Below are positions 1,769-28,828 of a stretch of 45,074 nucleotides of DNA, piece by piece. A program made the translations under genes and the position numbers. The first letter of the stretch is position 1, and the number at the start of each line of letters is the position of its first letter. Source of the stretch: a virus (taxonomy: Duplodnaviria > Heunggongvirae > Uroviricota > Caudoviricetes); IMG/VR virus record IMGVR_UViG_2908567220_000008, positions 1-45,074 of that record, one strand, 5' to 3'. The notes under the pieces were generated by a model. That model did no database searches, was not told where the DNA came from, and saw only the letters and a program-made list of their open reading frames with translations.

Positions 1769-1987
1769 TCAGCGCTCCTTTATATATCCGTTCAAAATAC
1801 CTATCTCCACATAGAGATGGCTTGGCGTTAACCCAAGCTGCTTTATCAGCGGCATGCATCCGTTGAGGATCGGTCGTGATATCTCGTCACAACTCAAAGC
1901 GGGGGATGAACGACGCTTTGCCTTAACCTCATCGTTAGCCCTGCGCGCGATGCTTCTGAGCGCATTTTTCTTTTCTTCTGGCGTCAT
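1769..1987 (-). CDS. Hypothetical protein
   Basis: 72 aa ORF tightly packed in the operon; its ATG overlaps the stop of the upstream gene (ATGA). Confidence 0.5.
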   Translation of the reverse strand: MTPEEKKNALRSIARRANDEVKAKRRSSPALSCDEISRPILNGCMPLIKQLGLTPSHLYVEIGILNGYIKER

Positions 1988-2829
1988 ACGCCCCCCATAT
2001 AAGCGCGAATGAAAGCCGCAGCTGCCTTGGCGTTTATAGCGTTACCGTACCCTTTCAGGCGGCCGACGCGGTTGCTGCTTGCCACTCTTGCCACCCCGGG
2101 CTCGACTCGTCCCATGCGTGCGGCAGCCCCATCAACCAGCGGGAATGTGCCGGGTTCAACTGGACGCCATTTTCCATCTCGACAAAAGAGCCAGTCCGCA
2201 TCTCGCCAAAAACCGTTAACCTCAAGGGCCCGATAATCCCCGCGAAGTCCTGCAGGCGCTGTTGAGTCTTGCTCCCGCCCTGGCGCCCGGACGTTCCCGC
2301 GCCGGTCACTGATGACGCTGTAGGCGTTGGCCACCCAGTAGGCCCGCTCTCTGATGTGCGGCGCACCGATGCCCGCTGACGTAAACGGCACAAGCCCGAA
2401 GGCGTATCCCAGTCCTTCCAGGTCTGCTTGTACAAGGTCGAACCAAGCATTTGCGTTACCGCTTGCAACCTGTTCGCCAAAGACATGCTGAGGTCTGCGC
2501 TCGCTGATGAGATGGAAGAAGTGGGGCCAAAGGTGCCGCTCGTCAGCAAACCCATCTCCTTTGCCTGCCGCGCTGAAAGGCTGGCACGGGCAGGAGCCAG
2601 TCCAGACCGGGCGATCGTCAGGCCATCCGGCGAGGCGGAGGGAATGGGACCAGACGCCGATACCGGCGAAAAAGTGGCACTGGGTAAATCCTCTGAGGTC
2701 GTCAGGTGTGACATCTTCAATACTCCGTTCGTCAACTTCGCCAGGGGCGATATGCCCGGCGGCTATGAGGTTACGCAGCCACTGCGCCGCGAATGGGTCA
2801 ATCTCGTTGTAGTAAGCCGCCGCGCTCAT
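1984..2829 (-). CDS. DNA (cytosine-5)-methyltransferase, orphan
   Basis: FAGIG (motif I) and PCQPFSAAGK (catalytic PCQ motif IV). Start taken at the ATG at 2829, which overlaps the stop of the upstream methyltransferase; the ORF track extends to 2862. No restriction endonuclease partner seen. Confidence 0.85.
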   Translation of the reverse strand: MSAAAYYNEIDPFAAQWLRNLIAAGHIAPGEVDERSIEDVTPDDLRGFTQCHFFAGIGVWSHSLRLAGWPDDRPVWTGSCPCQPFSAAGKGDGFADERHLWPHFFHLISERRPQHVFGEQVASGNANAWFDLVQADLEGLGYAFGLVPFTSAGIGAPHIRERAYWVANAYSVISDRRGNVRAPGREQDSTAPAGLRGDYRALEVNGFWRDADWLFCRDGKWRPVEPGTFPLVDGAAARMGRVEPGVARVASSNRVGRLKGYGNAINAKAAAAFIRAYMGGV

Positions 2830-3482
2830 GCTGCCTCCGTCTTCACAACATCGATGGCGCATCCAGGTATCAGCTCAACTGAAGCGGTGGCGCACTGGTT
2901 ACCCCAGTGACTCCAGCCTGGCGCTGCGCTGCGGCTGAATAACTCAATCCGCGGCACGTCGCCGTAGAGCAGTTCCAGGCGGTGCCGAACTTCCCACGGT
3001 TTCTCGCTGTGCGCGCCGAGCGGGCTGTAGACCACCTGCTTAATTCCAGCGTGCTTGCGTTCCAGCCCGGCGCCGCGGGTGGCGATCAGCACGTCTTCGG
3101 TATTGGCGCGGGTATGGTTGCCACCGTTCATGCGCGTCTCGGCATTCAGCTGGTCGAGGAAGTCGTAAAAGTTGGTCACATTTCCCTCTGCCAGAGCCTT
3201 GGTAATGCGCAGCTCGGCTAGCTGATTCAACTTCACCCAGGTGAAACCCTTCATCGTGCGAACCGTAAAGCCCCAGGCTTCAGCCAGCTCGATCGCCTCC
3301 TGGTTGTGGGTGCCGGTGTACCACATCGCCAGCACAGCGTTATCCGCGGCGAGCTCCCACACCGGGAGCCGCTTCATATCGAGCAAGCTCATGGTGGGAT
3401 AGTGATCGACGGCGGCACCGTTGCTGATCGTGTTCCCGTAAGACCAGGCCGGGTCAGCATAGATAAGTGAGTAGCGGTTCAT
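2826..3482 (-). CDS. MT-A70-family N6-adenine DNA methyltransferase, orphan
   Basis: 218 aa with N-terminal IYADPAWSY (DPPW-type catalytic motif). RBS agagg upstream of the ATG at 3482. Confidence 0.8.
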   Translation of the reverse strand: MNRYSLIYADPAWSYGNTISNGAAVDHYPTMSLLDMKRLPVWELAADNAVLAMWYTGTHNQEAIELAEAWGFTVRTMKGFTWVKLNQLAELRITKALAEGNVTNFYDFLDQLNAETRMNGGNHTRANTEDVLIATRGAGLERKHAGIKQVVYSPLGAHSEKPWEVRHRLELLYGDVPRIELFSRSAAPGWSHWGNQCATASVELIPGCAIDVVKTEAA

Positions 3483-6924: not shown

Positions 6925-7006
6925 CTCTTCACCTTTGCCTTATCGCGGCTAACGGGACGTTTTGACTTCACCCCGGCGTTGCCGGTGTTGTTTGGATGAG
7001 ATGATA

Positions 7007-7082
7007 ATAGCAATGAGTATTAACCATAGCAATACGTATTGTTATTATTTGATAGCTATTGCTATTAAATCATTGATAGCTA
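7007..7082. promoter_or_regulatory. Operator-like repeat cluster (putative OL-type operator and promoter region)
   Basis: ATAGCAAT at 7007 and 7026; near-palindrome ATAGCAATACGTATTGTTAT at 7026-7045; ATAGCTATTGCTATTA at 7052-7067; TTGATAGCTA at 7073-7082. The same ATTGCTATTA core recurs between cI and cro. Confidence 0.4.
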
Positions 7083-7144
7083 AATGAATTTATTTTTTCC
7101 TATTGTGCTGTTATGCTCAAAAAAACGCCAAAAAGGGTAGCGCC

Positions 7145-7348
7145 ATGTCGAATGAGGATGAGTTTTTCGCAGAGATGCACCCGCAGATTGCGCAGGTCAT
7201 CGGGATAGCGGTTATGCAGCTGCTGGTTGAGAGGCGCGAGCCATCAAGAGAGGCGCTGATAGAGATGATTCAGGTGTTGTGGCAGGGTGACCAGGTAGAT
7301 CTGGCAGTAGAGCTGGCACTGGATGTGCTGATGCTGCGGGAAGAGTAG
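7145..7348 (+). CDS. Hypothetical small protein (67 aa)
   Basis: ATG at 7145 (MSNEDEFFAEMHPQ...), in the same frame as the longer track ORF 7103..7348. Plus-strand gene convergent with the kinase module. Confidence 0.5.
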   Translation: MSNEDEFFAEMHPQIAQVIGIAVMQLLVERREPSREALIEMIQVLWQGDQVDLAVELALDVLMLREE

Positions 7349-7354
7349 GGCAGT

Positions 7355-7377
7355 AAAAACCCGGCGCGGTGGCCGGG
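7355..7377 (-). terminator. Intrinsic terminator for the kinase/DUF3037 transcription unit
   Basis: GC hairpin cccggc-gcggtg-gccggg (7360-7377) followed on the minus strand by a U-run (plus-strand aaaaa, 7355-7359), 17 nt past the stop at 7394. Confidence 0.55.
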
Positions 7378-7393
7378 TGCTGGCAACAGTTTG

Positions 7394-8212
7394 TTAGTTA
7401 AAATTAAGGCTTTTCCCGGCAGCGACTAACATATGATCGTAGTATTTAGACATATCTTCGCTACTTAGCAAGTTGAAGACATTGTCAGCATAACCTCCAA
7501 CCAAGTTAAGTTGCTGAGAGTGCGCTTTTTCCTGAGGTGTATCAGCAGCATAAACCACAAAAGTCTTCACGCAGTTATTCCACTTGGTCTTAGCTGCGTT
7601 TATTGTCACAGCTTTAAACGCTGACTCACCCATTTTTTGGCGATTATTGGAAATCCGTAGATCTAAGGTTTCAGTTAAATGATAAATTCCATTTTTTAGT
7701 AAAAGTTCAGCATAAAGACCTTCAGATTCAGAAAGCGGATACCCCTGAACCACTTTATGCTCGCTAATTTCCTTGAGATTCTTACCCATAACTCCTTCTT
7801 TTTCAAACCTATCCTTAAGCTCGGTAATAATTCTTTTTTGAGAAACTTCAGTTCTTTTCTTCGCTCGCTCAGGTGTTATGAATAATTTATTTAATTCATT
7901 GATTTTTAATTCATATTCACGTTCATTGGCAGCATGAAATGTACCTACGCTTGACAAGGCAAAGCTACCTTGGAAAAAGAGAGAAGCCTGTTCGATGCTT
8001 AAGCCAGAAGTTAAAATAGTCTCCAGTTGCTTCTGGCTATTTTCTAATGCTTCAAGCCCAAAATCATTTGTAATAGCTTTTAGTTTAGTAGGGGTTTCTA
8101 TGACGCGCACATCTGGGCCAGATGGCTTCATGACGACAAGGCCAACGTTGATTGTCTCGGCGCGGACAGGGTTCGGTGTTATTCTGACAATACTGTATTT
8201 ATATGTATTCAT
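7394..8212 (-). CDS. DUF3037-like protein (272 aa), partner of the HipA-like kinase
   Basis: N-terminus YSIVRITPNPVRAETINVGLVVM resembles the DUF3037 family (from memory, needs HMM confirmation). ATG overlaps the kinase stop (ATGA). Visibly AT-rich. Confidence 0.6.
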   Translation of the reverse strand: MNTYKYSIVRITPNPVRAETINVGLVVMKPSGPDVRVIETPTKLKAITNDFGLEALENSQKQLETILTSGLSIEQASLFFQGSFALSSVGTFHAANEREYELKINELNKLFITPERAKKRTEVSQKRIITELKDRFEKEGVMGKNLKEISEHKVVQGYPLSESEGLYAELLLKNGIYHLTETLDLRISNNRQKMGESAFKAVTINAAKTKWNNCVKTFVVYAADTPQEKAHSQQLNLVGGYADNVFNLLSSEDMSKYYDHMLVAAGKSLNFN

Positions 8213-9033
8213 TTCAGCACCTCCCCTCTAACAGTGTCGATTCGTTTCATTCTGCCGTCGCTTGACCACCAGGTTAGCAGAGCATCCCTCTGCAAAGGAT
8301 TGATCCATGCTTCCGGCATGTCTTCAAAAATCCGTTCTATCGTGCTAGAGCTAATTCTGGATAGCTTATCCAATACAGCTTCCGCAGGCGCTTTACACGA
8401 AACATCATTATATGTCAACTGCTTGATCGCTTGCCAGCAGTTTGTGGTGTTGTAGCCCATTGGTATTAGGGCTGCGTCGGTTTTGTTCGGCCAACCCATA
8501 ACCATAGCTGCAAGGCTGAAATCGAAGGCTTGGATAGTCAGGTTTCCATATCGGTTCTTAGTGTACAGATAGTTACCAATATGCCTATCAATATTAAATA
8601 CGAACTGATCGAAGGCGTAAACTGACCATACTTGCTTCCGTAGAATAGAAGGTCCGGACATCAATTCAGCGGCAAAGTTAATTTCTTCTTGTGGCTTACT
8701 CATGGCAGCCAGGTCATATTTTGATCCAAAAAAGTGCTCTCCTGTATCCGGGTCAATCAAAACCCTACAGGCCGGGGTAGGAAGCCCACTAAATTCAGCA
8801 AGTTTAGTACATAGCCATTCTGATGCTGGAATTTGCTTTGGGTGGGGAATCCCTGTCAAAGCGGATGCATCACCATCAGAAACCCCTTTTATTGCATACT
8901 CTAAACCGTCGGAGGCCATAACTGTATGCCTTAGGTGAGCTGTGCCCATTGCTGGCTTATAATCCACAATCTCAAGACTAAACAAGGGTTCTTGAATAGT
9001 AATGTTCTTTTCAGGTTGTGAGTCTTCTTCCAT
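8209..9033 (-). CDS. HipA-like / CtkA-like atypical kinase-fold protein (274 aa)
   Basis: FNIDRHIGNYLY matches the N-x-D-x-H-x-x-N catalytic-loop pattern of HipA-family kinases (E. coli HipA has D-x-H-x-K-N). AT-rich coding sequence. Confidence 0.6.
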   Translation of the reverse strand: MEEDSQPEKNITIQEPLFSLEIVDYKPAMGTAHLRHTVMASDGLEYAIKGVSDGDASALTGIPHPKQIPASEWLCTKLAEFSGLPTPACRVLIDPDTGEHFFGSKYDLAAMSKPQEEINFAAELMSGPSILRKQVWSVYAFDQFVFNIDRHIGNYLYTKNRYGNLTIQAFDFSLAAMVMGWPNKTDAALIPMGYNTTNCWQAIKQLTYNDVSCKAPAEAVLDKLSRISSSTIERIFEDMPEAWINPLQRDALLTWWSSDGRMKRIDTVRGEVLK

Positions 9034-9143
9034 TTTTATTCCACTAATTGATTAGTGATAGATTCCACCGGGTACTTCATTGCTGCTCTGAACTTAAGCT
9101 TTATTGCCCTTCTGGGCGGCGAGGAACCGCGAAGCGCTCTTAT

Positions 9144-9169
9144 CCATGCTTCCTGTACGTCTTCGGCAT
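9144..9169. repeat. Direct repeat copy 1: duplicated 3' end of the cI gene
   Basis: ccatgcttcctgtacgtcttcggcat matches 9347-9372 at 25 of 26 positions; on the minus strand it reads MPKTYRKHG-stop, the same as the CI C-terminus. Confidence 0.7.
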
Positions 9170-9200
9170 TACCAAAAACACATCGAACTACCGGTCTGGC

Positions 9201-9320
9201 TCACTCAAAGTCATCCCGCTCATCCTTCCGCTTGAAGAAAACTTTATCCAGCCTGAGCACTATCCCAACCAGTCCGATAATCAGCAAAGTAATGAGTATT
9301 GGGATAATCAGATCAGACAT
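9201..9320 (-). CDS. Small membrane peptide (39 aa) immediately downstream of cI
   Basis: Hand-translated MSDLIIPILITLLIIGLVGIVLRLDKVFFKRKDERDDFE; SD gaggaag ahead of the ATG; flanked by the 26-bp direct repeats. Confidence 0.45.
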   Translation of the reverse strand: MSDLIIPILITLLIIGLVGIVLRLDKVFFKRKDERDDFE

Positions 9321-9342
9321 GCTTCCTCTGCGTGCTAAGGCT

Positions 9343-10041
9343 TTACCCATGCTTCCTGTACGTCTGCGGCATGCTGCCGATCACCTTGCCGAACACGAAA
9401 ACACGATTCATTTCGTCTTTCTCGATCGGGTCCCAGGCTGCATAGCTCTTGTTATCTGAGATAACCAGCAGCTTGTCCTTCATCTTCTGCAGGCGCTTGA
9501 CGTGAGCAGTGTCGTCGTACAGGAAGGCGTATATCCCGTCGCCGTCGAAGCTCTTAACGCTGATGTCGACGAACAGCAGATCACCCGGCTCAATCGTGCC
9601 GGACATGCTGTCACCCCGGACGTTGATGATCCGGATGTTCTCAGCCTTACGCCCATCGAACATGTGCCGGGCTTCAGCTGGCTCATACTCAACAGAACGG
9701 AGAATCTCGACGAACTCCTGGTTCACGATGCCCGGCCCGGCACTAACCATAAGGTCCAGCACATCAATCCTGAATGCATCAGTATCCTGGCTTTTAACCT
9801 GGGCAGCGCGAGGGAGCTGGCCGTCATCGCGCATCGGTCCATTTCCGGTTGATAACCATTCAGACCTGACGCCCAAAGCATTAGCTATCTCGACAATTTT
9901 TGTTGAACCCCTGGCGTTTCCACTCACCAGGCGCCAAATGGTTGGCTGAGCAATACCTGAGGCCTTCGCAAGCGCCCCTTGTGACATTCCAGCCGAAGCC
10001 ATGGCCTCGTTTAAACGATCTGCAAGAGTTTCTTTTTTCAT
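9343..10041 (-). CDS. cI: CI-type phage repressor (HTH_XRE plus S24 LexA-like autopeptidase)
   Basis: N-terminal HTH (MSQGALAKASGIAQPTIWRLVSG) and C-terminal S24 signature (VRGDSMSGTIEPGDLLFVD ... VKRL). Start taken at the ATG at 10041; the track ORF begins at a TTG at 10104. Confidence 0.85.
   Translation of the reverse strand: MKKETLADRLNEAMASAGMSQGALAKASGIAQPTIWRLVSGNARGSTKIVEIANALGVRSEWLSTGNGPMRDDGQLPRAAQVKSQDTDAFRIDVLDLMVSAGPGIVNQEFVEILRSVEYEPAEARHMFDGRKAENIRIINVRGDSMSGTIEPGDLLFVDISVKSFDGDGIYAFLYDDTAHVKRLQKMKDKLLVISDNKSYAAWDPIEKDEMNRVFVFGKVIGSMPQTYRKHG
9347..9372. repeat. Direct repeat copy 2 (authentic 3' end of cI)
   Basis: ccatgcttcctgtacgtctgcggcat, encoding the last residues of CI (MPQTYRKHG). 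Confidence 0.7.
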
Positions 10042-10152
10042 AATCTCAAATTTATACGCTTGCGTATTACTGGTCAAAACACGTTTTGCTATTGCTAAAA
10101 CCAATACGCATTGCTATTATCATTTTGCACCAATACTTATAGGAATTGGAAC
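10042..10152. promoter_or_regulatory. Divergent cI/cro operator-promoter region (OR-like)
   Basis: Intergenic region between divergent cI and cro containing GCTATTGCTA (10088-10097) and ATTGCTATTA (10110-10119) next to CAATACG. Confidence 0.5.
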
Positions 10153-10380
10153 ATGACGAACAAAACCATCCAGAAGGCAATTGATATCGCTGGCAGTCAG
10201 AAAAAATTGGCCGATCTGTGTGGCGTAGCGCAGCCGACAGTTTGGCGCTGGCTGCATGGCGGCGGAATTGACGCTCGCTATGTAATGAAAATCGTGTCTG
10301 CGACCAACGGCAAGATTAAGGCGGCAGAGATCAGGCCTGACCTTGCTCAGTTGCTGAGCGCGCATTCACCGGCCGCCTAA
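10153..10380 (+). CDS. cro: Cro-like HTH regulator
   Basis: 75 aa from the ATG at 10153; HTH QKKLADLCGVAQPTVWRWLHG; divergent from cI. Confidence 0.75.
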   Translation: MTNKTIQKAIDIAGSQKKLADLCGVAQPTVWRWLHGGGIDARYVMKIVSATNGKIKAAEIRPDLAQLLSAHSPAA

Positions 10381-10420
10381 CCAGCGGCCATTCCAAACAA
10401 CACCAGAGGAAGTATCACAA

Positions 10421-10642
10421 ATGGAGAGTTCAACGACACGCAACAAAGTGGAGGCTCGCAGGATAGAAAGCTGGTTACACAGCCAGATAGCTGAACTGGG
10501 AACCACGAATATCGCCAAAGTGGCCGGAGTGAATAAGTCGACGGTGAGTCGCTGGCGGGAAAGTCTGCTGCCGAACATGTCGCTGCTGCTGGCCATCCTG
10601 ATTTCTAACAGGCCGGGAGAGAAAGGTGATTTTGAAGCATGA
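10421..10642 (+). CDS. cII: CII-like transcriptional activator
   Basis: 73 aa; alignable by eye to lambda CII (RIESWLHSQIAELGTTNIAKVAGVNKSTVSRWRESLLPNMSLLLAIL versus lambda ALRIESALLNKIAMLGTEKTAEAVGVDKSQISRWKRDWIPKFSMLLAVL). Confidence 0.8.
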   Translation: MESSTTRNKVEARRIESWLHSQIAELGTTNIAKVAGVNKSTVSRWRESLLPNMSLLLAILISNRPGEKGDFEA

Positions 10643-10727
10643 GTGGGAACAGAAAGGCGAAAGCCGCAGTGCAGCAACACTAACGGCTTTCTACGCGAAT
10701 TAACTGGATCAATTCACAGGAGTAATT

Positions 10728-11582
10728 ATGGCAAATACTGCCGAGGTAATCAATTTCCCTGTGCCTGTCGTGGCACTACAGGAGCTGCGCGTGGCAGATC
10801 TCGACGATGGGTTTACGCGCATCGCCAATGAGCTCCTTGAAGCTGTCATGCGTGCGGGTCTGTCGCAGCATCAGCTTTTGGTGTTCATGGCTGTCATGCG
10901 CAAAACATACGGCTTCAACAAGAAATCTGACTGGGTCAGTAACGAGCAGCTCTCGGAGCTGACCGGCATTCTCCCGCATAAGTGCTCAGCTGCAAAAAGC
11001 GTCCTGGTTAAGCGGGGGATATTAACTCAAACCGGTCGTGTTATCGGGATTAATAAAACGGTCAGCGAATGGTCATCTTTACCCGTAAAAGGTAAAGAAA
11101 AAAAACCTTACCTGAAAAAGGTAACATTACCCGAATCAGGTAAGAAAAGTTTACCCGAATCAGGTAACGCCTATTACCCGAATCAGGTAAACACAAAAGA
11201 CAAACATACAAAAGACAATAAAGACAATATTAATAACCCCCCTAAATCCCCCCGGGCGGTTTCGTTCGATGCGTTAGCTGTTCAGTTGCCTGACTGGCTT
11301 TCTGCAGAAATCTGGTCGTCATGGGTGGCATATCGTCGCGACCTGAAAAAGCCGATCAAGTCTCAGCAGACGGTCACCCAGGCTATCAACCTGCTGGACC
11401 GCTGCAGACTGAACGGTTACGCGCCCGAAGAAATTATCAACCGCAGCATCGCCAATGGCTGGCAAGGCCTGTTTGAGCCAAATGGTGCCAAGCCTCAACC
11501 AAGTCAACAGGTGCGAGTTGCCGAAAATTTCGCAGGGAAGGATTACGGGCAGACTGAAATCCCATCATGGGCGAGGGACTGA
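10728..11582 (+). CDS. Replication initiator (lambda O-like) with embedded origin
   Basis: 284 aa; N-terminal DNA-binding region; iterons lie inside the coding sequence; followed by a DnaC-like loader. Confidence 0.8.
   Translation: MANTAEVINFPVPVVALQELRVADLDDGFTRIANELLEAVMRAGLSQHQLLVFMAVMRKTYGFNKKSDWVSNEQLSELTGILPHKCSAAKSVLVKRGILTQTGRVIGINKTVSEWSSLPVKGKEKKPYLKKVTLPESGKKSLPESGNAYYPNQVNTKDKHTKDNKDNINNPPKSPRAVSFDALAVQLPDWLSAEIWSSWVAYRRDLKKPIKSQQTVTQAINLLDRCRLNGYAPEEIINRSIANGWQGLFEPNGAKPQPSQQVRVAENFAGKDYGQTEIPSWARD
11088..11240. repeat. Origin iterons plus adjacent A-rich tract (ori-lambda-like)
   Basis: Three exact TTACCCGAATCAGGTAA copies (11127-11143, 11151-11167, 11174-11190) and two degenerate copies upstream, spaced about 20-24 bp, followed by an A-rich tract. 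Confidence 0.65.
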
Positions 11583-11584
11583 TC

Positions 11585-12436
11585 ATGGAACTGGAAGAAA
11601 AAATCACTGCCATTGAGCGGATGCTTGATCAGCTGAGTAAGCCACCGGAAGACATCCCGAATTGCGAGGTGGTTATCGAGCGCGTCTGTTGTGAAAAGCA
11701 TGGCGAGTATGAGCAGCGCAAGCGGATCCTGACCAGCAGCATCATCAATCTGCCATCACCGCCGACACGCTGCCCGGGCTGCCTGGAAGACGAACTGAAT
11801 TTTCTGAAGGATGAAAAGGTTCGCTGGGATAAGCGAGTTCGCCAGCAAACTGCAGAAAGGCTGCTTCGCCAGCTGGATATACCAGAGCGATTCTCCACGT
11901 GCACTCTGAACAGCTACAAGCCTGTTGGGAAGGATTCTGAGCGAGCATTACGGGTCTGCCAGGCCTACGCATCGAAATGGACTGATCGCCTCCAGCAGGG
12001 AGGTGGGTTGGTTATGTGTGGCAAGCCTGGTACCGGTAAAAACCACCTTGCGCTGGCCATTGCCCGCCATGTGATTGAGCACCACCAAAGCTCAGTCATT
12101 TTCACGACGGCGCTCAAGATTGCCCGGGAGTTTAAATCGACCTGGTCAAAAACAGCCACGCGCACTGAGGATGAGGTGATCAGCTACTTCACGAAGCCAG
12201 ACCTTCTGATTGTCGATGAGGTTGGTGTGCAGTTTGGCAGCGAAGCCGAGAAGATGATCATGTTTGAAATCATCAACACCCGCTACGAGCGCCTGAAGCC
12301 GACGATCCTGATCAGCAACCTGCCGAAGGATGAGCTGACGCAGTTTATCGGCGAGCGCGTCATCGACCGCATGAACGACGGCGGAGGCTGCACGATTTCG
12401 TTTACCTGGGACAGCTATCGGGAGAACAGGTCATGA
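11585..12436 (+). CDS. DnaC-like helicase loader (IstB-type AAA+ ATPase)
   Basis: Walker A GKPGTGKNHLALAIA and Walker B LLIVDEVG. Start taken at the ATG at 11585, just after the O stop; the frame opens at 11567. Confidence 0.85.
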   Translation: MELEEKITAIERMLDQLSKPPEDIPNCEVVIERVCCEKHGEYEQRKRILTSSIINLPSPPTRCPGCLEDELNFLKDEKVRWDKRVRQQTAERLLRQLDIPERFSTCTLNSYKPVGKDSERALRVCQAYASKWTDRLQQGGGLVMCGKPGTGKNHLALAIARHVIEHHQSSVIFTTALKIAREFKSTWSKTATRTEDEVISYFTKPDLLIVDEVGVQFGSEAEKMIMFEIINTRYERLKPTILISNLPKDELTQFIGERVIDRMNDGGGCTISFTWDSYRENRS

Positions 12437-12726
12437 CAGGCAAAGACGCAATTCTGAACTACCTGAAAACGCATAAAACCTGTAGCTCTCCAGATGTCGC
12501 CGCGGCTTCCGGGATGACGCATACCTGCATCAACCAGGCTGCAAATATCCTGGCAAAGCAAGGGGTGCTGGTAGCTGAAGCTCGGGTGTGGCGGACGGTT
12601 TACTACCGGCTGGCTACTGAAGAAGAAATTTCAGGCAGGAAGAGCACCAATCAGATTTTCAACGAGTGTCGGCAAAGCCCGGCGATGAAACGGGTACTGG
12701 CTGTTTACGGGAGAACATCAGCATGA
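12433..12726 (+). CDS. Hypothetical protein
   Basis: 97 aa ORF; ATG overlaps the upstream stop. Confidence 0.5.
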   Translation: MTGKDAILNYLKTHKTCSSPDVAAASGMTHTCINQAANILAKQGVLVAEARVWRTVYYRLATEEEISGRKSTNQIFNECRQSPAMKRVLAVYGRTSA

Positions 12727-13163
12727 CTATCACACTACAGGCAGTAAACGAGCTCATCGCCACCCTGGAGAGCGCAGGCGAGCTGTCGATCAGAGAGCAG
12801 AAGTTCCTGAAGCTGGCGAAAGCGTACCAGCAGCTGGCTGCGGAGAATGTGGAGGCAAAAAAAATAATCAGCGAATGCCGGGAGTATTTCATCGCTGGGG
12901 TGATGAACCGTATCAGACCAACGAATGAAGGATACCTGCATATGATTTGCGACACGTTTGCAGACGAAACCCCAGCAACCGATCGCATCGTAGCCGGGAT
13001 TAAGGCTGATGGGGTGGATGAGTTCGTATCCAACGCCGTGCATAAGATTTTTGATGAAAGCGGAGCAGTGTCAGCTTTGGCTTACCTTTCGCTCGCTAAT
13101 TCATACGTGAAGCAACTGCGCGAGGGGGCGACAAATGACCAAGTCAACCATAACCAGAGATGA
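12723..13163 (+). CDS. Hypothetical protein
   Basis: Start at ATG 12723 (MTITLQAVNEL...), within track ORF 12666..13163. Confidence 0.5.
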   Translation: MTITLQAVNELIATLESAGELSIREQKFLKLAKAYQQLAAENVEAKKIISECREYFIAGVMNRIRPTNEGYLHMICDTFADETPATDRIVAGIKADGVDEFVSNAVHKIFDESGAVSALAYLSLANSYVKQLREGATNDQVNHNQR

Positions 13164-13704
13164 GCTTAACGAAGTGATTGCCACATACGGAAAGCACCAC
13201 ATTGCTCATCGAATGGCTAATGTATTGTTGGCCGCAATGGACAGCGAGCCAGATTGCAAGGAAAGAAAACTTTTCTGTTCAACCGATACGACCAGAATGA
13301 GAAAGACAATCTCTGTCTCTGCTGGGACCGAGGATGCGCCGCTATATCGCCACGCGCAGCAGCCGGTAAATAGCGAGCCAGTAGGATACCTTTTCCATAA
13401 CGAATACGGTGTGGTTTTATACTCAATTTCCGATGATGCTACCGAGGGATTCTCGCTAATTGGGCCAATATACTCCGTACCGCAGCCAGCGCCGGTAGTG
13501 CCTGGTAAATGGATTCCGGTAAGCGAGCAGATGCCGGAAGACCGCACGCAGGTAATTCTATGGGATGCTGAAATTGGAGAAGTAACAAGCGGTCACTACA
13601 GCCATAAAACACATACTTTTTATCATTGCGGCGATGCCATCGAAAACGAGATAACCCACTGGATGCCGACGCCAGCAGCTCCGCAGGAGATGAAAGGTGA
13701 ATAA
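13135..13704 (+). CDS. DUF551-like phage protein
   Basis: 189 aa; C-terminal WIPVSEQMPED...HW resembles DUF551 (recalled). Confidence 0.55.
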   Translation: MTKSTITRDELNEVIATYGKHHIAHRMANVLLAAMDSEPDCKERKLFCSTDTTRMRKTISVSAGTEDAPLYRHAQQPVNSEPVGYLFHNEYGVVLYSISDDATEGFSLIGPIYSVPQPAPVVPGKWIPVSEQMPEDRTQVILWDAEIGEVTSGHYSHKTHTFYHCGDAIENEITHWMPTPAAPQEMKGE

Positions 13705-13936
13705 AGCCGAACTATTGCAGAAGATATCAGCGCTCGCTACTGAATGCCACACGCTGGCCTGTGATCTTGATATTGGTGATGAGCGAACCGAAATGTTCGA
13801 AATCTACGGCGTGCTGCACAATCTCGGTCGCCGCGGGTACGCCTGCCAGGTAGGGCGGCGCATGAATCCACTGCTCGCATCCTGCGATGACGACGAGGAT
13901 GAGGAAGATGACGATTGGGATGAGGATGACGACTGA
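13697..13936 (+). CDS. Hypothetical protein with acidic C-terminal tail
   Basis: GTG start at 13697 preceded by ggaga; ends in DDDEDEEDDDWDEDDD. Confidence 0.4.
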   Translation: MNKAELLQKISALATECHTLACDLDIGDERTEMFEIYGVLHNLGRRGYACQVGRRMNPLLASCDDDEDEEDDDWDEDDD

Positions 13937-13992
13937 TGCCTAAATCCCCTGCAGAACGCAAAGCCGCGCAGCTAATCTGTTAGTGATATATA

Positions 13993-14019
13993 ATCCCCTC
14001 CACAGCAGAGGGGATTTTT
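13993..14019 (+). terminator. Putative intrinsic terminator in the nin-like region
   Basis: Hairpin atcccct-ccacagcag-aggggat followed by ttttt, ending right at the next ATG. Confidence 0.4.
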
Positions 14020-14202
14020 ATGACAAACAAAAAAATGACACCTGCCGAAAAGCTCAAAGCATCGCGGAAGCGGTATAAAAAAATCTGGCTTCAAATGGAT
14101 ATCGCTAACGCCAAGCGATTTGGCGAGAAAGAAGTGCTTTCCGTTGACACCTACAGATCGCCCTATGAAACGCGCAAGAAAAGAGGGAGGACAGCAGATT
14201 GA
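14020..14202 (+). CDS. Hypothetical basic protein (60 aa)
   Basis: ORF with ATG at 14020. Confidence 0.4.
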
Positions 14203-14462
14203 CAACATCATCCTGGAACATAGCAGCCAAATCGAAAGACGAGCAGGACAAAGTCAACGTTGACCTCGCCGCGTCCGGCGTCGCTTACAAAGAACGCCTG
14301 AACATGCCGGTTGTCGCCGAAGTGGTGGCCAGACAACAGCCTGAACACCTGCGGGACTACTTCATGGAGCGCGTCCGCTACTACCGCGAGCAGAGCATCC
14401 AGCTTCCCCGCGCATCCGATCCGCGCTATCTGGAAATGGCTGAGCAGAACGCCAAGAAATAG
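14199..14462 (+). CDS. Hypothetical protein
   Basis: TTG start at 14199 preceded by gggagg; 87 aa. Confidence 0.4.
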
Positions 14463-14568
14463 CGATTTTCTCGTATATGCTCATTTTGCTTTTATCCCCG
14501 CGACGGGCGATAATTACTTAGTCAGTCTGGACAACTGACAACTTTACCCCGGCGCCAAGTGGGGACAC

Positions 14569-15165
14569 ATGGCGCAAACACTGCAATTTGAGAAGAGTTA
14601 TCAAAACGTACTGATTCCCGCAGAGCCGGGAACCAGCGAATACCTGCAACTTATCCCCGTAGGGCAGCTGCTTTGCGGTGAGTTCCGCAAGCCCCGGAAT
14701 TACGCATTCCACAAAAAGTTCTTCAAGCTTCTGACTCTCGGGTATCACTACTGGACCCCTTCCGGTGGTCTCATTGAGCCCGCGGAGCGTACCCTCATAT
14801 CCGGGTTTATCGACTTTCTCTCATCCGACCTCGATCAGCGCGCTGCACTCCAGAACGCCGCGGAGATGTATCTCTCCTCGGTCGGTATCTCCCGTTCCCG
14901 CGATATGGCGCTGCTGAAACACTTCGAATCCTTCCGCGAGTGGGCAACCATTCAGGCTGGCTTTTATGACGAATACCAGATGCCTGACGGCAGCCGTCGT
15001 CGTGTCGCAAAGTCGATATCCTTCGCCAGCATGGACGACAGCCAGTTTAACGGCGTCTACAAATCAGTGCTGAATGTGCTCTGGAACTACATTCTGCGTC
15101 GCAAATTCCACTCGCCGGCTGAGGCTGAAAACGCCGCCAGTCAGCTGCTGAGCTTTGCGGGGTGA
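14569..15165 (+). CDS. Phage protein, DUF1367-like (nin region)
   Basis: 198 aa; resembles the DUF1367 family of lambdoid nin regions (recalled, uncertain). Confidence 0.5.
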   Translation: MAQTLQFEKSYQNVLIPAEPGTSEYLQLIPVGQLLCGEFRKPRNYAFHKKFFKLLTLGYHYWTPSGGLIEPAERTLISGFIDFLSSDLDQRAALQNAAEMYLSSVGISRSRDMALLKHFESFREWATIQAGFYDEYQMPDGSRRRVAKSISFASMDDSQFNGVYKSVLNVLWNYILRRKFHSPAEAENAASQLLSFAG

Positions 15166-15371
15166 TGGCGATGAAATACTCATGGTTCCAGCATCCCGAC
15201 TGCACAACCGAGCAGGCCGAACAGTTAGTGTCCAGATATCAGGCGCGAGGCATTGTCACAGAGAAAAGCCTTAACGCGGATTATCTGAGTTGGACGGTCA
15301 GCGCCCGGCTGCCGGTTTGTGTTCGCCCGGAGCATACTCCGCGATCACTTCGTCAACGTATATGGGGGTGA
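15162..15371 (+). CDS. Hypothetical protein
   Basis: 69 aa ORF; start overlaps the upstream stop. Confidence 0.4.
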   Translation: MMAMKYSWFQHPDCTTEQAEQLVSRYQARGIVTEKSLNADYLSWTVSARLPVCVRPEHTPRSLRQRIWG

Positions 15372-15373
15372 GC

Positions 15374-15664
15374 ATGGCCAATCTTCGTAAAGCAGCTCGC
15401 GGTCGTGAATGCCAGGTTCGCATCCCGGGCGTCTGCAACGGCAACCCTGAAACCACGGTATTGGCCCATATCCGCATTGCTGGATTGTGCGGGACGGGGA
15501 TTAAGCCGCCTGATCTGCTCGCCGCTATCGCCTGTTCATCCTGTCACGATGAAATAGACCGCCGCACGCGCCTGGTAGATGCGGAGTATGCGAAGGAGTG
15601 CGCGCTGGAGGGAATGGCCAGAACGCAGGTTATCTGGATGAAAGAGGGGTTGATAAAAGCATGA
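15374..15664 (+). CDS. DUF1364 / YbcO-like putative nuclease
   Basis: [23 protein letters not shown]... with conserved Cys/His; start at ATG 15374 inside track ORF 15290..15664; sits just upstream of rusA as in DLP12-type prophages. Confidence 0.65.
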
Positions 15665-16023
15665 ACCAATATCGCATTTCATTACCCTGGCCGCCAAGCA
15701 ACAACCGCTACTACCGGCACAACCGGGGACGCACACACATCAGCGCGGAAGGGCAGGCATACCGCGACAGCGTCGCCAGAATCATCAAAGACTCGATGCT
15801 TGATATCGGCCTGGCCACGCCATTGAAAATCCGTATTGAGTGTCACATGCCGGATCGCCGGCGCCGTGACCTGGACAATCTGCAAAAGGCAGCATTCGAC
15901 GCCCTGACGAAATCGGGTTTCTGGCTCGATGACCAGCAGGTTGACTACTACAGCGTGAAGAGAATGCCTGTCGTCAAAGGTGGGCGGCTTGAGCTAACCA
16001 TTACCGAAATGGAGTCCGCATGA
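15661..16023 (+). CDS. rusA: RusA-family Holliday junction resolvase
   Basis: 120 aa from ATG 15661; RusA-like sequence with conserved acidic residues (DLDN). Confidence 0.85.
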
Positions 16024-16160
16024 GCCGTGACGTTATCGAACGCATCCGCGACCGCTGGCAAAAGCTTCGCCTCCTGCGTAGCCGCGGCACCGTGCTGGTC
16101 GACTACAAAATATTACGCAATTTCGTCCGTATCTATAAGCGCCTGGGAGAAGCAGCATGA
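16020..16160 (+). CDS. Small protein (46 aa), YlcG-like by position
   Basis: Hand-translated [46 protein letters not shown]; overlaps the rusA stop and the Q start. Confidence 0.45.
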
Positions 16161-16846
16161 CAGCTCAATACTTGGAATTTGTTCGCCAGCAGCTGATAGT
16201 GGCCACCGCCGATCTGAGTGGTGCGACGAAAGGGCAACTGGTAGCTTTTGCAGAGAACGCGCAATTTACCGCTACGGCGCGCAGCCGTGGCCGGAAGAAG
16301 GTGTATAGCGAGGTGAAGCAAAAAATGGTTAACCCGGATGGACCGCCGATGAGCGGCAGCCAGTGCCGCGCTAAGGGTTCCTCAATCGCTCTCGTTCTGC
16401 CCGTTGAATACTCGACAGCCAGCTGGCGCCGCGCCCTCCTGTCGCTGGAAGACCACCAGAAATCCTGGTTGCTGTGGAACTACAGCGACAATATCCGCTT
16501 TGAGTATCAGGTAGCGATAACACAGTGGGCATGGGAAGAATTCCGTGATCAACTCGGCGCTAAGAAAGTGGCCGGCAAGACGATGGAGCGGCTGAAGAAA
16601 CTGATATGGCTGGCGGCACAGGACGTGAAAGCAGAGCTGGCGGGTAAGTATGTATATCAGCACCAGGACCTTGCAGCCCTGTGTGGCGTTAAGCCTGATA
16701 ACTGGTGCCATAACTACGCTGATTACTGGCGGGCTATGTGCGCCATTTTTAAGCGGCTTGATAGCGACTCTCTTCTCTGTGCTGTGAGAACACGATCACA
16801 ACAAAAAGCGACTTTTTCGCAGCAGGGTCTTGCAAAAGTCAATTAA
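16157..16846 (+). CDS. Late-gene antiterminator Q-like protein
   Basis: 229 aa, last gene before the lysis region and followed by a short terminated leader; resembles lambdoid Q-family antiterminators (recalled). Confidence 0.65.
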   Translation: MTAQYLEFVRQQLIVATADLSGATKGQLVAFAENAQFTATARSRGRKKVYSEVKQKMVNPDGPPMSGSQCRAKGSSIALVLPVEYSTASWRRALLSLEDHQKSWLLWNYSDNIRFEYQVAITQWAWEEFRDQLGAKKVAGKTMERLKKLIWLAAQDVKAELAGKYVYQHQDLAALCGVKPDNWCHNYADYWRAMCAIFKRLDSDSLLCAVRTRSQQKATFSQQGLAKVN

Positions 16847-16935
16847 ATACGTCATATTTGAGTCTACTTTGATATGCTGCCTTAACTTTAAGTGGCGGCA
16901 TGAAGATGATAGTCATATACCAGTTTGTAAAATTA

Positions 16936-16962
16936 GCCTCGGCAATCCGCCGGGGCTTTTTT
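16936..16962 (+). terminator. Intrinsic terminator (tR'-like) downstream of Q
   Basis: Stem gcctcggc / gccggggc (one mismatch), loop aatcc, then tttttt. Confidence 0.5.
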
Positions 16963-17407
16963 ATGCCTGCGATCCGGTCAGGGCTCTTGGGTAGAGACGT
17001 GCTGCACGACACGTCAAAGCCCTTCCGCGCAGAGCCCTGAACCAGATTGAAGTTACTCAGCAATAAGAAAACTGCATGTCATCATTTGCTTATATCTTAT
17101 TGACCAGAAAATTAACATGTTGTTAATCTATTCGTGTGGTGAATTCCCCTATGCGGAGGGGCGACCAGTCACTTACAGTGATCTGTAAATGCAGCGCGGG
17201 CCATGTCGACTGGGACATGCTCACTGGGAGGCACCCGGCACCATAATGCAATGCTACATAAGCTATTTGATAGTGGGGTTGCCGTTTCGGCTTCTCCAGC
17301 TATGTTTAAAAGGTAGTAACGGAAAACGAGCGCTCTCCTGGTAAATCGGAAGCTCGGACTATTAGGTGCGCCTCGAACCGTTGAAGAATCAGTATTTCCT
17401 ACCTTCT

Positions 17408-17434
17408 GCCCGCCCCTCTGAGCGGGCTTTTTTT
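17408..17434 (+). terminator. Intrinsic terminator upstream of the tRNA pair
   Basis: Stem gcccgc / gcgggc with an 8-nt loop, followed by ttttttt. Confidence 0.5.
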
Positions 17435-17499
17435 CGCCTAATTCAGGCAAAACCATAAAGCATTAAGGGCTGCGCTATTTCGCGGCCTTTTTCATTTCA

Positions 17500-17574
17500 G
17501 GGTCAGAAGCACAGCGGTTGTGCGTTCGGCTGTTAACCGAATGGTCGAAGGTTCGAATCCTTCCTGTCCCGCCA
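17500..17574 (+). tRNA. tRNA-like gene, anticodon GTT (Asn) by manual folding
   Basis: 75 nt with encoded CCA; T arm gaagg-ttcgaat-ccttc; anticodon loop ctGTTaa; acceptor stem has one T-T mismatch, so it may be atypical or a pseudo-tRNA. Confidence 0.5.
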
Positions 17575-17579
17575 AATTA

Positions 17580-17656
17580 GCGCCATTAGCTCAACCGGAG
17601 AGAGCAATAGCCTTCTAAGCTATCGGTTTCAGGTTCGAGTCCTGAATGGTGCACCA
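17580..17656 (+). tRNA. tRNA-Arg (anticodon TCT)
   Basis: 77 nt cloverleaf folded by hand: acceptor gcgccat/atggtgc, D stem gctc/gagc, anticodon stem atagc/gctat with loop ctTCTaa, T arm tcagg-ttcgagt-cctga, encoded CCA. Confidence 0.75.
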
Positions 17657-17790
17657 GATAATGGCCTGACCTGATAACGGGTTCATACCCCAACTTATCA
17701 GGGGCGTTGCTGCAACAGCGTCACAGGCCGCCAGACCCAGCTAGGGTATTTTCGGTCATCACCGACATTGCTATTACCCTCATGCTTATT

Positions 17791-17814
17791 GCCTGCCTAA
17801 CCGCAGGCTTTTTT
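17791..17814 (+). terminator. Intrinsic terminator after the tRNA pair
   Basis: Stem gcctgc / gcaggc, loop ctaacc, then tttttt. Confidence 0.5.
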
Positions 17815-17925
17815 ATTTTCAGGGTCGCGGGAATCACCCTCGACGCTTTGTTGGTAAATCAGCCCGACGGCCCTGAACCTTTTACTGACTACAGATAGCA
17901 CCCCGAACATTATCGGAGGTGAGAG

Positions 17926-18240
17926 ATGCAACGTATGAACCCAACCGATGGTCACAATCTGCCTTACTGGTGGTCAGCCTTGCTTGGTATCTTTTCCGTC
18001 CTGAGTCTGCAGGATTATGTCTTCATCATTGGCGCCCTGATCTCTGCCTTCTTCACAATCAAGACGTATTACGCAAAGCGCAAGGAAGAGCGAGAGCGAC
18101 TGGATGAAGAGAAAAAACGCACGCAGCTGTTGGCCAGTTATCTGGCTGATGTCTCCGCAAAGCCTGGAGGTGACCGCCCGGCTTCAGCCGAAGTGGTAAC
18201 CGAGGCCTTGAAGCGGATCGCAAGTGATACACAGGGGTGA
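17926..18240 (+). CDS. Holin, two-TM class
   Basis: 104 aa with two hydrophobic helices ([29 protein letters not shown]) and a charged C-tail; strong RBS ggaggtgagag; first gene of the lysis cassette. Confidence 0.7.
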
Positions 18241-18746
18241 GCATGACGCCATCAATGAGGAATAAACTGATTGGCGTGATCGCCGGCGGCGGTGGCGCCA
18301 TAGCCATTGCCTCTGCGCTTATCACTGGCCCAACTGGTAACGATGGTCTTGAAGGTGTGCGCTATGACCCCTATCAGGATGTGGTAGGCGTCTGGACTGT
18401 CTGCTATGGCCATACTGGCAAAGACATCATGCTCGGCAAGAAGTACACCGAGGCTGAATGCCGTGCGCTGCTCAGCAAAGACCTGAACACCGTTGCTCGC
18501 CAGATTAATCCTTACATCCAGAAGCCGATCCCCGAGACAATGCGCGGGGCTCTGTACTCGTTCGCGTATAACGTTGGCGCTGGCAACTTCCAGACCTCCA
18601 CGCTGCTGCGAAAAATCAACCAGGGCGACCAGAAAGGCGCATGTGACCAGTTGCGCCGCTGGACCTACGCCAAGGGCAAACAGTGGAAAGGCCTGGTAAC
18701 TCGCCGCGAGATTGAGCGCGAAGTTTGTCTCTGGAGTCAAAAATGA
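18237..18746 (+). CDS. SAR endolysin (T4-lysozyme-like glycoside hydrolase)
   Basis: N-terminal Gly/Ala-rich signal-anchor-release helix ([21 protein letters not shown]) and catalytic E-x8-D-x5-T motif ([17 protein letters not shown]). Confidence 0.85.
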
Positions 18747-19132
18747 GCCGGTTAACCGCCATTATCAGCGCCATTGCGATCTGCCTGGTTGTTTGCCTTG
18801 GTTGGCTGGCAATGCATTACCGCAACGCTGCTGCTGAGCAGAAAACCAGAGCCGATAGCGCTGAGCAGCAGGTAAACGCAGCACAGGCGATCACCTCCAA
18901 CGTTCTGACCACCATGACCATCTTCAACACCATCGCCGAGGCCAATCAGCATGCAAAAGAGCAGATCGCACTGGACGCATCGGGAGCCTCGGCTGATATC
19001 CGGGTTGCTGTTGCGAATGATGATTGCACTAATCGCCCTGTCCCTGCTGGCGCAGTTAAGCGGCTGCAACAATTCGCGAACGGTCTACGTCAAAGTGCCG
19101 GTAGTCCCGTTACCGGCCAGCCTGACGGCTGA
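18743..19132 (+). CDS. i-spanin (Rz-like)
   Basis: N-terminal TM ([20 protein letters not shown]) then a periplasmic helical domain; ATG overlaps the endolysin stop. Confidence 0.7.
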
Positions 19133-19274
19133 CACCCCGCAACCGGAAATCCCTGACAACCTGACGTGGGGCCAGAGCCTAGATTTAAACGTCAGTCTCC
19201 TATCAGCGCTTGGGCAGTGCAACCGGGATAAGGCAGATATTAGGCAAGCTGTAAAGAAACAAGCGGGCCAATAA
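19017..19274 (+). CDS. o-spanin (Rz1-like lipoprotein), overlapping the i-spanin in another frame
   Basis: Start [17 protein letters not shown] with lipobox LSGC and a Pro-rich mature part; begins inside the Rz-like gene and extends past it. Confidence 0.65.
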   Translation: MMIALIALSLLAQLSGCNNSRTVYVKVPVVPLPASLTADTPQPEIPDNLTWGQSLDLNVSLLSALGQCNRDKADIRQAVKKQAGQ

Positions 19275-19301
19275 GCCCGCACTTATGGAGGATTCAAAAT
19301 G

Positions 19302-19901: not shown

Positions 19902-20011
19902 AATGCACATAAAGTGAAAGGTTTTCTGCGTAAACCCGGATGAAATAATTTCATGAAGTAAGGCATTACAGAGCCACTTCCAGAGGTGGCTCGATAATGT
20001 TGGAGGAAACC

Positions 20012-20650: not shown

Positions 20651-20751
20651 CCTGAATACCTACCCCATAGGGTTTGGGTCCTTCCTGAGACTTTTGTAAG
20701 GCACGGGCATTGCGCGCCGCAGTGTTTTCCTAGCTACAAACTTTTATTTTG

Positions 20752-23529: not shown

Positions 23530-23537
23530 GGAAAACC

Positions 23538-26298: not shown

Positions 26299-26299
26299 A

Positions 26300-27297: not shown

Positions 27298-27395
27298 TTT
27301 ATCCCTCATTTATCCTGGCGAATGCTTTAACCGGCAGGCGCTGACCTATTTAAAATTTATGCCAGCGTCTAGCTGGCATTATCAAGAGACTGAAT

Positions 27396-28445: not shown

Positions 28446-28446
28446 T

Positions 28447-28824: not shown

Positions 28825-28828
28825 GCAT

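Follow-up and report, generated by a model that had tools for sequence, protein, structure and literature searches.

A conserved gene nested in the C5 methyltransferase gene of a lambdoid prophage: dual coding and a probable two-chain enzyme

We analysed a stretch of 45,074 nucleotides from a tailed phage (Caudoviricetes; IMG/VR record IMGVR_UViG_2908567220_000008, positions 1 to 45,074; hereafter the window), in which a C5 methyltransferase gene lies next to an MT-A70 family gene. A sequence-only reading had described the region 1984-3482 as two back-to-back orphan DNA methyltransferases, and both open reading frames (ORFs) were indeed located there, on the minus strand, with matches to PF00145 and PF05063. 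We found that the C5 locus is dual-coding, with an annotated frame (alpha) and a nested +1-frame gene (beta) that are each under their own purifying selection. What had been read as a C5 methyltransferase is thus a member of the C5 family but not one gene, since the nested gene (2055..2714) is conserved and selected in every relative examined. The locus probably encodes a two-chain C5 methylase like M.EcoHK31I, in which beta would supply target recognition; our computations show the dual coding, the selection on each frame, the conserved internal start of beta, its modular variability and a deletion in the window allele, and we infer that beta is a methylase subunit, that its modules set specificity and that the enzyme has an anti-restriction role. 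Two adjacent orphan methylases, as first stated, would be ordinary, and it is the nested gene that makes the locus moderately interesting.

Results

Two selected reading frames in the C5 gene

The elements of the dual-coding locus in the window are as follows.

2834..2838, minus strand: Shine-Dalgarno sequence GGAGG for alpha, 4 nt upstream of the ATG at 2829 and within the 3' end of the MT-A70 gene; read directly
1984..2829, minus strand: C5 methyltransferase alpha (frame A), 281 aa; predicted catalytic large-domain chain
2723..2726, minus strand: internal Shine-Dalgarno sequence GGAG for beta, 8 nt upstream of the ATG at 2714, formed by alpha codons R35 (CGG) and S36 (AGT)
2055..2714, minus strand: beta, 219 aa (MSHLTTSEDLP...ATASAA), gene nested within alpha and read in its +1 frame; translation checked

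The mechanical ORF of the C5 gene is 1984..2862. Its actual start was placed at the ATG 2829..2827 because of the GGAGG upstream, because all alpha homologues share the N-terminus MSAAAYYNE, and because an identical 281-aa protein is present in NCBI ('DNA cytosine methyltransferase [E. coli]'). In its +1 frame this gene runs open over 226 codons in the window and over 334 in a longer allele described below, and that frame contains protein-like stretches (TWKDWDTPSG, RASVRRTS, repeated GWPTPT and LNPAHSRWLMGLPHAWD); peptides specific to beta include LQAVTQMLGSTLYK and WLMGLPHAWDESSPGWQEWQAATASAA.

For comparison, 80 alpha loci were taken from one-genome-per-species contigs, with alpha identities of 47-96% and hosts in Enterobacteriaceae, Burkholderiales, Desulfovibrio, Rhodobacteraceae, Phycisphaeraceae and other groups. 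In all of these approximately 80 loci the +1 frame was open for 177-425 codons within alpha, compared with 32-184 codons (mean about 61) for the +2 frame, and W-x-T-P motifs occurred exclusively in the +1 frame, with none in the alpha frame. Synonymous codon shuffles gave a mean of 140 open codons versus 285 observed, and the +2 frame showed no excess. When the window gene alone was shuffled, the observed open length was reached in 45 of 2,000 trials (p about 0.02). This single-gene result is weak evidence, and the argument for dual coding therefore rests on the comparative tests.

Codon-position diversity, computed over 63 non-redundant loci, followed the boundaries of beta. The third position of alpha codons had a diversity of 0.50-0.63 over residues 1-75 and of 0.28-0.43 over residues 76-170. 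Over LNPAHSRWLMGLP (residues 219-231) it was 0.13, and position 1 was the most variable there; past the beta stop it was back to 0.55-0.67, as expected for single coding. When alpha codons were redrawn with the alpha proteins kept, the expected identity of beta was 0.30-0.36 versus 0.58-0.61 observed, and beta identity was above expectation in 129 of 130 pairs (45/46, 53/53 and 31/31). There was no excess in the beta frame outside beta, either upstream of its start (0.31 versus 0.30) or downstream of its stop (0.20 versus 0.27). In the reciprocal test, alpha identity was 0.68-0.81 versus the 0.24-0.33 imposed by beta.

Codon choice in alpha also indicates that beta has its own conserved internal start, composed of a Shine-Dalgarno sequence and an ATG. 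In the window this start is the ATG 2714..2712, 115 nt into alpha, and the region around it is spanned by a conserved alpha stretch, V-D-E-R-S-I-E-D-V. The last Asp of this stretch (Asp39) was GAT in 57 of 62 loci; elsewhere GAT made up 38% of Asp codons, and at the neighbouring Asp it was used in 29 of 63 loci. GAT followed by G in alpha yields ATG in the beta frame. Similarly, alpha R35 was encoded by AGG, a codon used for 8% of Arg residues elsewhere, in 33 of 63 loci and by CGG in 13, and alpha S36 by AGY in 48 of 55 loci, and these choices together create (A)GGAG 8 nt upstream of the beta ATG. The first ~37 residues of beta are weakly constrained, and the position of its start shifts among phages: it lies at alpha codon 30 in K1ind1 and not before codon 65 in N15, where the first ATG is at codon 93. 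By computational measures, namely the conserved Shine-Dalgarno sequence and ATG and the independent purifying selection, beta would be an independently translated and functional protein.

Distribution of the nested gene

Beta matches phrog_31772 (E 1.6e-20) and phrog_1008 (E 3.1e-20), both annotated 'DNA methyltransferase'. We found 5,249 homologues in a collection of 5.8 billion proteins and 10,365 representatives at 50% clustering; among the matches listed, no Pfam domain was present. In addition, beta lay in the +1 frame relative to the annotated gene in each of the eight phage records whose frames were examined (N15, K1ind1, fTaEco01, RcPacific, pEp_SNUABM_08, Dunaliella virus SI2, epsilon15-like and Burkholderia phages). 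Single-frame relatives with beta-like sequence in the catalytic frame were looked for among these eight records and none was seen.

Several named phage genes belong to the same dual-coded family, including gene 58 of N15, the 'cytosine methylase' of Salmonella phage epsilon15, ORF28/ORF29 of K1ind1 and the Kagunavirus 'Mte8-like protein'. Their +1 frames contain the beta core, W-P-T-P modules and LNPxHSRWLMG, and they differ from the window in the position of the beta start and in module content. Both nested ORFs are already annotated in GenBank for K1ind1 (ORF28/29) and fTaEco01 ('Mte8-like protein'), so the nested ORF had not gone unseen. In the literature searched, a functional or evolutionary description of the nested gene was not found, only an annotation label ('Mte8').

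A shorter gene was observed in Dunaliella viridis virus SI2 (L088, 1326..1730), where a 135-aa coding sequence annotated 'cytosine methylase' has the motif-IX-like segment of beta when read in the +1 frame; this gene looks like what is left of a truncated member of the dual-coded family. The SI2 record was deposited as that of an algal virus, yet is classified among tailed phages.

Motifs of alpha

Three short motifs of alpha are referred to below.

2656..2670, minus strand: F54-A-G-I-G58, motif-I-like S-adenosylmethionine loop, in a 30-aa insertion between motifs III and IV
2581..2589, minus strand: P81-C82-Q83, motif IV with the catalytic Cys; aligns to PCQ of M.HhaI and is invariant in relatives
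2035..2046, minus strand: G262-N-A-I265, motif-X-like, downstream of the beta stop; likeness read by eye

Alpha was assigned to the C5 family by PF00145 (E 2.4e-13; 50.7 bits against a cut-off of 22) and by phrog_363 over its full length (E 9e-92); with the NCBIfam superfamily model TIGR00675 it scored 37.5, below the cut-off of 100.65. The alpha family profile matches residues 71-175 of M.HhaI (motifs IV-VIII; E 1e-16), and hhalign against a profile of six canonical C5 sequences aligned alpha 5-171 with canonical 27-167 (Prob 98%). Motifs IV, VI and VIII are all present in alpha: besides the PCQ of motif IV, E119-Q-V (motif VI) and H158-I-R-E-R (motif VIII) align to M.HhaI and are variant spellings of E-N-V and Q-x-R-x-R. 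Motif I is not at the N-terminus, the chain beginning at motif II; it is present in a permuted position. The FAGIG loop, in which F54, A55 and G56 are invariant in 33 diverse relatives, gives a weak alignment onto M.HhaI residues 4-32 and appears as an insertion in hhalign. The motif order of alpha is most simply read as permuted, II-III-I-IV-VI-VIII ... X (alpha residues 1-80, 2590..2829).

All alignments of alpha end at about residue 171, and in Pfam, PADLOC, M.HhaI and hhalign comparisons nothing matched a target-recognition domain (TRD) or motif IX. Between its motifs VIII and X, alpha was thus found to have neither a TRD nor motif IX, and this interval holds only an unconserved linker. 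The C-terminus is again conserved (NGFWRDADWLxCRDGKWRPVEPGTFPL...RLKGYGNAI), with G262 invariant and N263 and A264 nearly invariant. Alpha alone is probably not a self-sufficient enzyme, since it is without motif IX and a conserved target-recognition region.

Modules of beta and a deletion in the window allele

The corresponding features of beta are listed here.

2217..2336, minus strand: single W-P-T-P module of the window beta (residues 127-166), a chimera of the module 1 head and the module 4 tail of the full-length allele
2273..2285, no strand given: deletion junction, 324 bp (108 codons), in-frame in both frames; overlapping BLAST segments
2112..2159, minus strand: beta L186-W201, LNPAHSRWLMGLPHAW, motif-IX-like; the most constrained stretch

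Beta has three parts. Its core, LSARQAKE.GLLTSGTYGP ... GSTLYKLTWK..TPSGR...LRAS..RTS, is conserved and lies over alpha motifs IV-VIII in the DNA. W-P-T-P modules follow in a variable array, and the C-terminal part, GGQLNPAHSRWLMGLPxEWD (LNPAHSRWLMGLPxxW), resembles motif IX. In hhalign, beta 182-203 was the sole stretch that aligned to canonical C5 methylases, at motif IX (E 0.44 with M.HhaI and 0.12 with the six-sequence profile).

The module array is highly diverse. In 317 beta proteins we counted 1,098 modules; these represent about 177 types, arranged in 197 architectures, and the types recur in varied combinations, for example F-A-C, F-A-D, O-A-C and B-Q-A-C. A protein may have up to 8 modules by strict count, and about 13 were counted by eye in P0267. 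Long homologues of beta (426-572 aa) are without a Pfam domain, and the three inspected simply had extra modules. In one widespread module type (24 instances), the diversities at beta positions 1/2/3 were 0.35/0.23/0.55, a pattern of constraint in frame B only, and the alpha frame was unconstrained. Because only beta is constrained in the module type tested, the variable region belongs to beta, and alpha there is a passively translated linker. A further observation concerns a 491-aa beta homologue (P0253), which has an HNH-like Cys/His pattern (CGTCG...CEFCG...HHVNED...CDSCH) after the motif-IX-like segment.

Compared with a 99.9% identical prophage of E. coli 914033, and also when aligned with a Klebsiella phage, the window C5 gene is without 324 bp, and this deletion is flanked by imperfect direct repeats, CAGG(G/A)CGGGA. 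The long allele has the module architecture B-Q-A-C and the window allele 'B', i.e., B fused to the tail of C (compared with P0001 and L001). In the full-length allele (L001, 4001..5170; E. coli 914033, NZ_CP158353.1), alpha has 389 aa and beta 327 aa, and both are uninterrupted. The deletion should alter, narrow or abolish target recognition by the window allele. The intact full-length allele is marked by the NCBI Prokaryotic Genome Annotation Pipeline (PGAP) as two pseudogene fragments.

Discussion

Alpha and beta as a two-chain enzyme

Alpha matches canonical C5 methylases over motifs II-VIII only, and the one stretch of beta that aligns to them, without significance, does so at motif IX. 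A heterodimer is proposed because the place of the small domain is constrained only in beta and because M.EcoHK31I provides a precedent. M.EcoHK31I is a C5 methyltransferase of E. coli HK31 made up of two polypeptides (Lee, Kam and Shaw 1995, as reported in PMC2836561 and PMC3404938), whose beta chain is encoded wholly inside alpha in another frame, carries motif IX and is required for activity (PMC2836561). The likeness to the window locus is considerable. The gene of the smaller chain lies entirely within that of the larger in another frame, which was the case here in all ~80 loci; the large chain has motifs I-VIII plus X, whereas the small chain has motif IX (here a segment that resembles it, though without a significant alignment); and the N-terminal ~40 residues of the M.EcoHK31I small chain, reported to be dispensable, are matched by a weakly constrained region in our beta. 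The differences are that M.EcoHK31I is part of a restriction-modification system (YGGCCR), whereas the window gene is a prophage orphan; that its beta has 176 aa, as compared with 219-570 aa here; and that the permuted motif order of our alpha is unlike that of M.EcoHK31I. Another naturally split C5 methylase, M.AquI of Agmenellum quadruplicatum, resembles the present case in that its chains must associate, but its split is end to end (I-VIII in one chain, then IX-X in the next), with no nesting of frames that overlap for hundreds of codons (PMC3404938). The architecture is thus already known from M.EcoHK31I, and what differs here is a phage orphan with the modular region in beta, a permuted alpha and a very large family.

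In the scheme that we favour, the MT-A70 gene would be translated first from the early-left transcript, alpha would follow by coupling through an ATGA overlap, and beta would be translated from the internal GGAG-N8-ATG. Alpha would form the large catalytic domain, with the FAGIG loop, Cys82 in PCQ, EQV, HIRER and the C-terminal GNAI, and would assemble with beta into a heterodimer in which beta gives the small, DNA-recognition domain in trans. Lacking a cognate endonuclease, such an enzyme may methylate the DNA of both phage and host, and would most likely serve to blunt host restriction after infection or induction. As for the allele in the window, a deletion between the short repeats cut four modules to one chimeric module.

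Several points weigh against this scheme. The alignment of beta to motif IX is non-significant (E 0.12-0.44), and beta gave no Pfam or PADLOC match and no meaningful match in a profile search of PDB sequences. AlphaFold2 models were unusable for both chains, with a mean predicted local distance difference test score (pLDDT) of 54.5 for beta (57-sequence alignment) and a pLDDT of 32 for alpha (shallow, 24-sequence alignment). Expression or activity data for the alpha/beta family were not found in the literature searched. The p-values for the start-codon bias, 1e-10 to 1e-19, ignore shared ancestry, and the window allele may be inactive after its deletion. With regard to the precedent itself, the TRD of M.EcoHK31I was reported in alpha, whereas the variable selected region is in beta here; and the likeness to M.EcoHK31I is taken from published descriptions.

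We also considered, as a rather unlikely but not negligible alternative, that beta is a real overprinted protein outside the methylase, for example an accessory DNA-binding or anti-defence protein, and that alpha works alone or with a host factor. This account keeps a share of the probability, since beta does not significantly resemble methyltransferase domains or other known domains and neither structure prediction was usable. Besides, the N-terminal half of beta has no counterpart in canonical C5 methylases, and overprinted viral genes frequently encode unrelated accessory functions. However, beta was co-inherited with alpha in every locus examined, its end aligns solely to motif IX, in a colinear position just upstream of alpha motif X, and the sole known nested ORF in a C5 methylase gene is an enzyme subunit. 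Moreover, alpha is without motif IX and without any conserved variable region, and every characterised C5 methylase needs these to recognise DNA (PMC3404938).

It is very improbable that a single chain is made by programmed frameshifting, with motifs I-VIII read in frame A, a +1 shift into frame B for the TRD and motif IX and a -1 shift back to frame A for motif X. The order of motifs in the DNA is colinear with a canonical single-chain C5 methylase, as this account would have it, but both frames are selected over the same DNA (beta 38-128 on alpha motifs IV-VIII, and alpha 203-232 on the C-terminal region of beta), and beta has its own conserved Shine-Dalgarno sequence and ATG. Two shifts would be required, one of them a +1 shift without a stop or hungry codon, and no homopolymeric slippery run was seen at the transition in the window, where no systematic scan for slippery sites was made. 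Equally hard to sustain is the view that the window has two ordinary single-chain orphan methyltransferases and that the +1 ORF, flagged by gene callers, results merely from G+C-rich codon usage: the reference annotation has frame A only and shuffles of the window gene do reach the observed open length at the frequency given above, but a by-product ORF is excluded by the comparative tests (openness, codon diversity, start codons, redrawn codons and module pattern), in which the +1 frame was open across all ~80 diverged loci, beta was conserved at about twice the level imposed by alpha and only between its start and stop, rare codons maintained the Shine-Dalgarno sequence and ATG, and one widespread module type had a substitution pattern of frame B only.

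Bacillus phages SPR, phi3T and rho11s have orphan multispecific C5 methylases with tandem target-recognising units in a variable region, and these enzymes are thought to protect against several host restriction systems. They are single polypeptides with TRDs in the main frame. Tandem shuffled modules exist in the present family too, but in a separate chain, and their role in specificity is putative. We tentatively suggest, as a possibility with the odds still against it, that the W-P-T-P modules are exchangeable target-recognition cassettes of a two-chain multispecific C5 methylase, whose repertoire is rewritten by in-frame recombination between modules, the 324-bp deletion of the window allele being an example.

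If alpha and beta do form one enzyme, thousands of phage and prophage annotations of 'DNA cytosine methyltransferase' would describe half an enzyme. Those affected would include N15 gene 58, epsilon15 and many Klebsiella and E. coli prophages, with the partner either unannotated or listed as a hypothetical protein without domains. The recognition subunit would then comprise more than 10,000 protein clusters with no Pfam family, in a frame overprinted on a catalytic subunit of permuted order (II-III-I-IV), and the overlap, about 220-330 codons with both frames selected, would rank by size and by strength of support among the foremost examples of long dual coding on a single strand in phages. 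M.EcoHK31I, a single biochemical curiosity, would become a widespread natural design. A separate modular recognition subunit would also inform both how phages diversify methylation specificity against host restriction and the engineering of split methyltransferases.

The adjoining MT-A70 gene

The features of this gene are the following.

2826..3482, minus strand: MT-A70 family methyltransferase gene, 218 aa
3443..3454, minus strand: catalytic tetrapeptide D-P-A-W of the MT-A70 protein, residues 10-13

The second gene had been taken for an N6-adenine DNA methylase. Its membership of the MT-A70 family was borne out (PF05063, E 4.9e-22, 79.1 bits against a cut-off of 23.9; phrog_359, E 4e-99), but the label of DNA methylase is uncertain, because the protein has DPAW instead of DPPW and its closest studied homologue prefers 16S rRNA. 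The tetrapeptide of the family, D-P-P-W ([DNSH]PP[YFW]), is thus not that of the window; DPAW is shared by two close relatives, in the prophage of E. coli 914033 and in Klebsiella phage ST101-KPC2phi6.1, and DPPW is present in four more distant homologues (L020, L056, L039 and L084). The last of these (L084 3004..3663, E. coli GB089) has an internal stop, is annotated as a pseudogene and has no adjoining C5 gene.

The nearest studied homologue is the MT-A70 protein of Stx2 phages (M.EcoPA8orf6770P/M.EcoGV), with 45% identity over 98% of the length; it likewise belongs to the MT-A70 family, and its gene too lies in a lambdoid prophage's early region. M.EcoPA8orf6770P bound to its partner PNB-2 prefers 16S rRNA and raises spontaneous prophage induction, and overproduction of M.EcoGV, a close Stx-phage homologue, led to methylation of GATC in DNA (PMC10810198). 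It is conceivable, though we consider it the less probable course, that the MT-A70 protein of the window is not a DNA anti-restriction methylase at all but an enzyme that methylates RNA (16S rRNA) and modulates the induction of the prophage, or else that it is inactive. The similarity to the Stx2-phage protein, the preference of that protein for 16S rRNA with its effect on induction, and the DPAW of the window lineage in place of the DPPW of the studied homologue all speak for this alternative. On the other side, M.EcoGV did methylate DNA, the best PADLOC model for the window protein is a Type II DNA methylase (MTase_II PDLC03262, E 3e-51), and the upstream gene, which in the Stx2 phages encodes the winged-helix PNB-2 that directs the enzyme to 16S rRNA, encodes a 54-aa DUF1317 protein in the window, unlike PNB-2 as far as the description in that paper allows comparison.

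The MT-A70 gene adjoins the C5 gene in only 3 of the 80 related loci. It is therefore a module independent of C5, and the suggestion that the two act as a functional pair did not hold; a conserved C5/MT-A70 pair was rejected on the same count.

Operon and genomic setting

The two genes are independent modules of the early-left operon of a lambdoid prophage, whose order is integrase, excisionase, TraR/DksA, phrog_303, C5, MT-A70, DUF1317, YqaJ exonuclease and RecT. The overlap of start and stop that had been noted is an ATGA, in which the MT-A70 stop TGA (2828..2826) is shared with the C5 start ATG (2829..2827), and with the Shine-Dalgarno sequence of alpha it is compatible with the translational coupling proposed at the outset. 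Gene overlaps of 4 nt of like kind occur at the operon junctions 1984-1987, 3479-3482 and 4311-4314, which makes four such junctions including C5/MT-A70. The nearest relatives are Klebsiella prophages (94-95% identity), and the E. coli 914033 prophage, located beside yecN/cmoA, is 97.8-99.9% identical to the window across the left 7 kb. The remainder of the window (7000..45074) is mosaic with respect to the latter prophage, with a few short stretches that match (91-99%).

The absence of an endonuclease partner was borne out within the range of our scans. A Pfam scan of ten other large ORFs, of which eight belong to the non-structural region and two lie close to the right end, found no restriction endonuclease, some small window ORFs being left unscanned, and a PADLOC scan of seven window proteins found none; nor is an endonuclease annotated in the closest annotated prophage, which matches the window over the early-left ~7 kb and a few short stretches only. 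A cognate endonuclease adjoining the methylase, the mark of a Type II restriction-modification system, was thus not found, the operon neighbours being DUF1317, the YqaJ exonuclease, RecT, TraR/DksA and phrog_303. An anti-restriction role of the locus is plausible, and we agree with the earlier statement that target specificity cannot be read from the sequence.

Other genes of the window were noted in passing. A gene pair at 7394..9033 (minus strand) lies between the early-left operon and a cI-like repressor (9343..10104). One member encodes a DUF3037 protein (272 aa; PF11236, E 5e-8; PADLOC candidate PDC-M66B, E 6e-7) and the other a HipA-like kinase (274 aa; PF20613, E 1.2e-6). The pair has the look of a moron and may be a toxin module or one that defends by abortive infection. 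An acyltransferase-3 gene at 40229..41320 (minus strand) may serve O-antigen modification.

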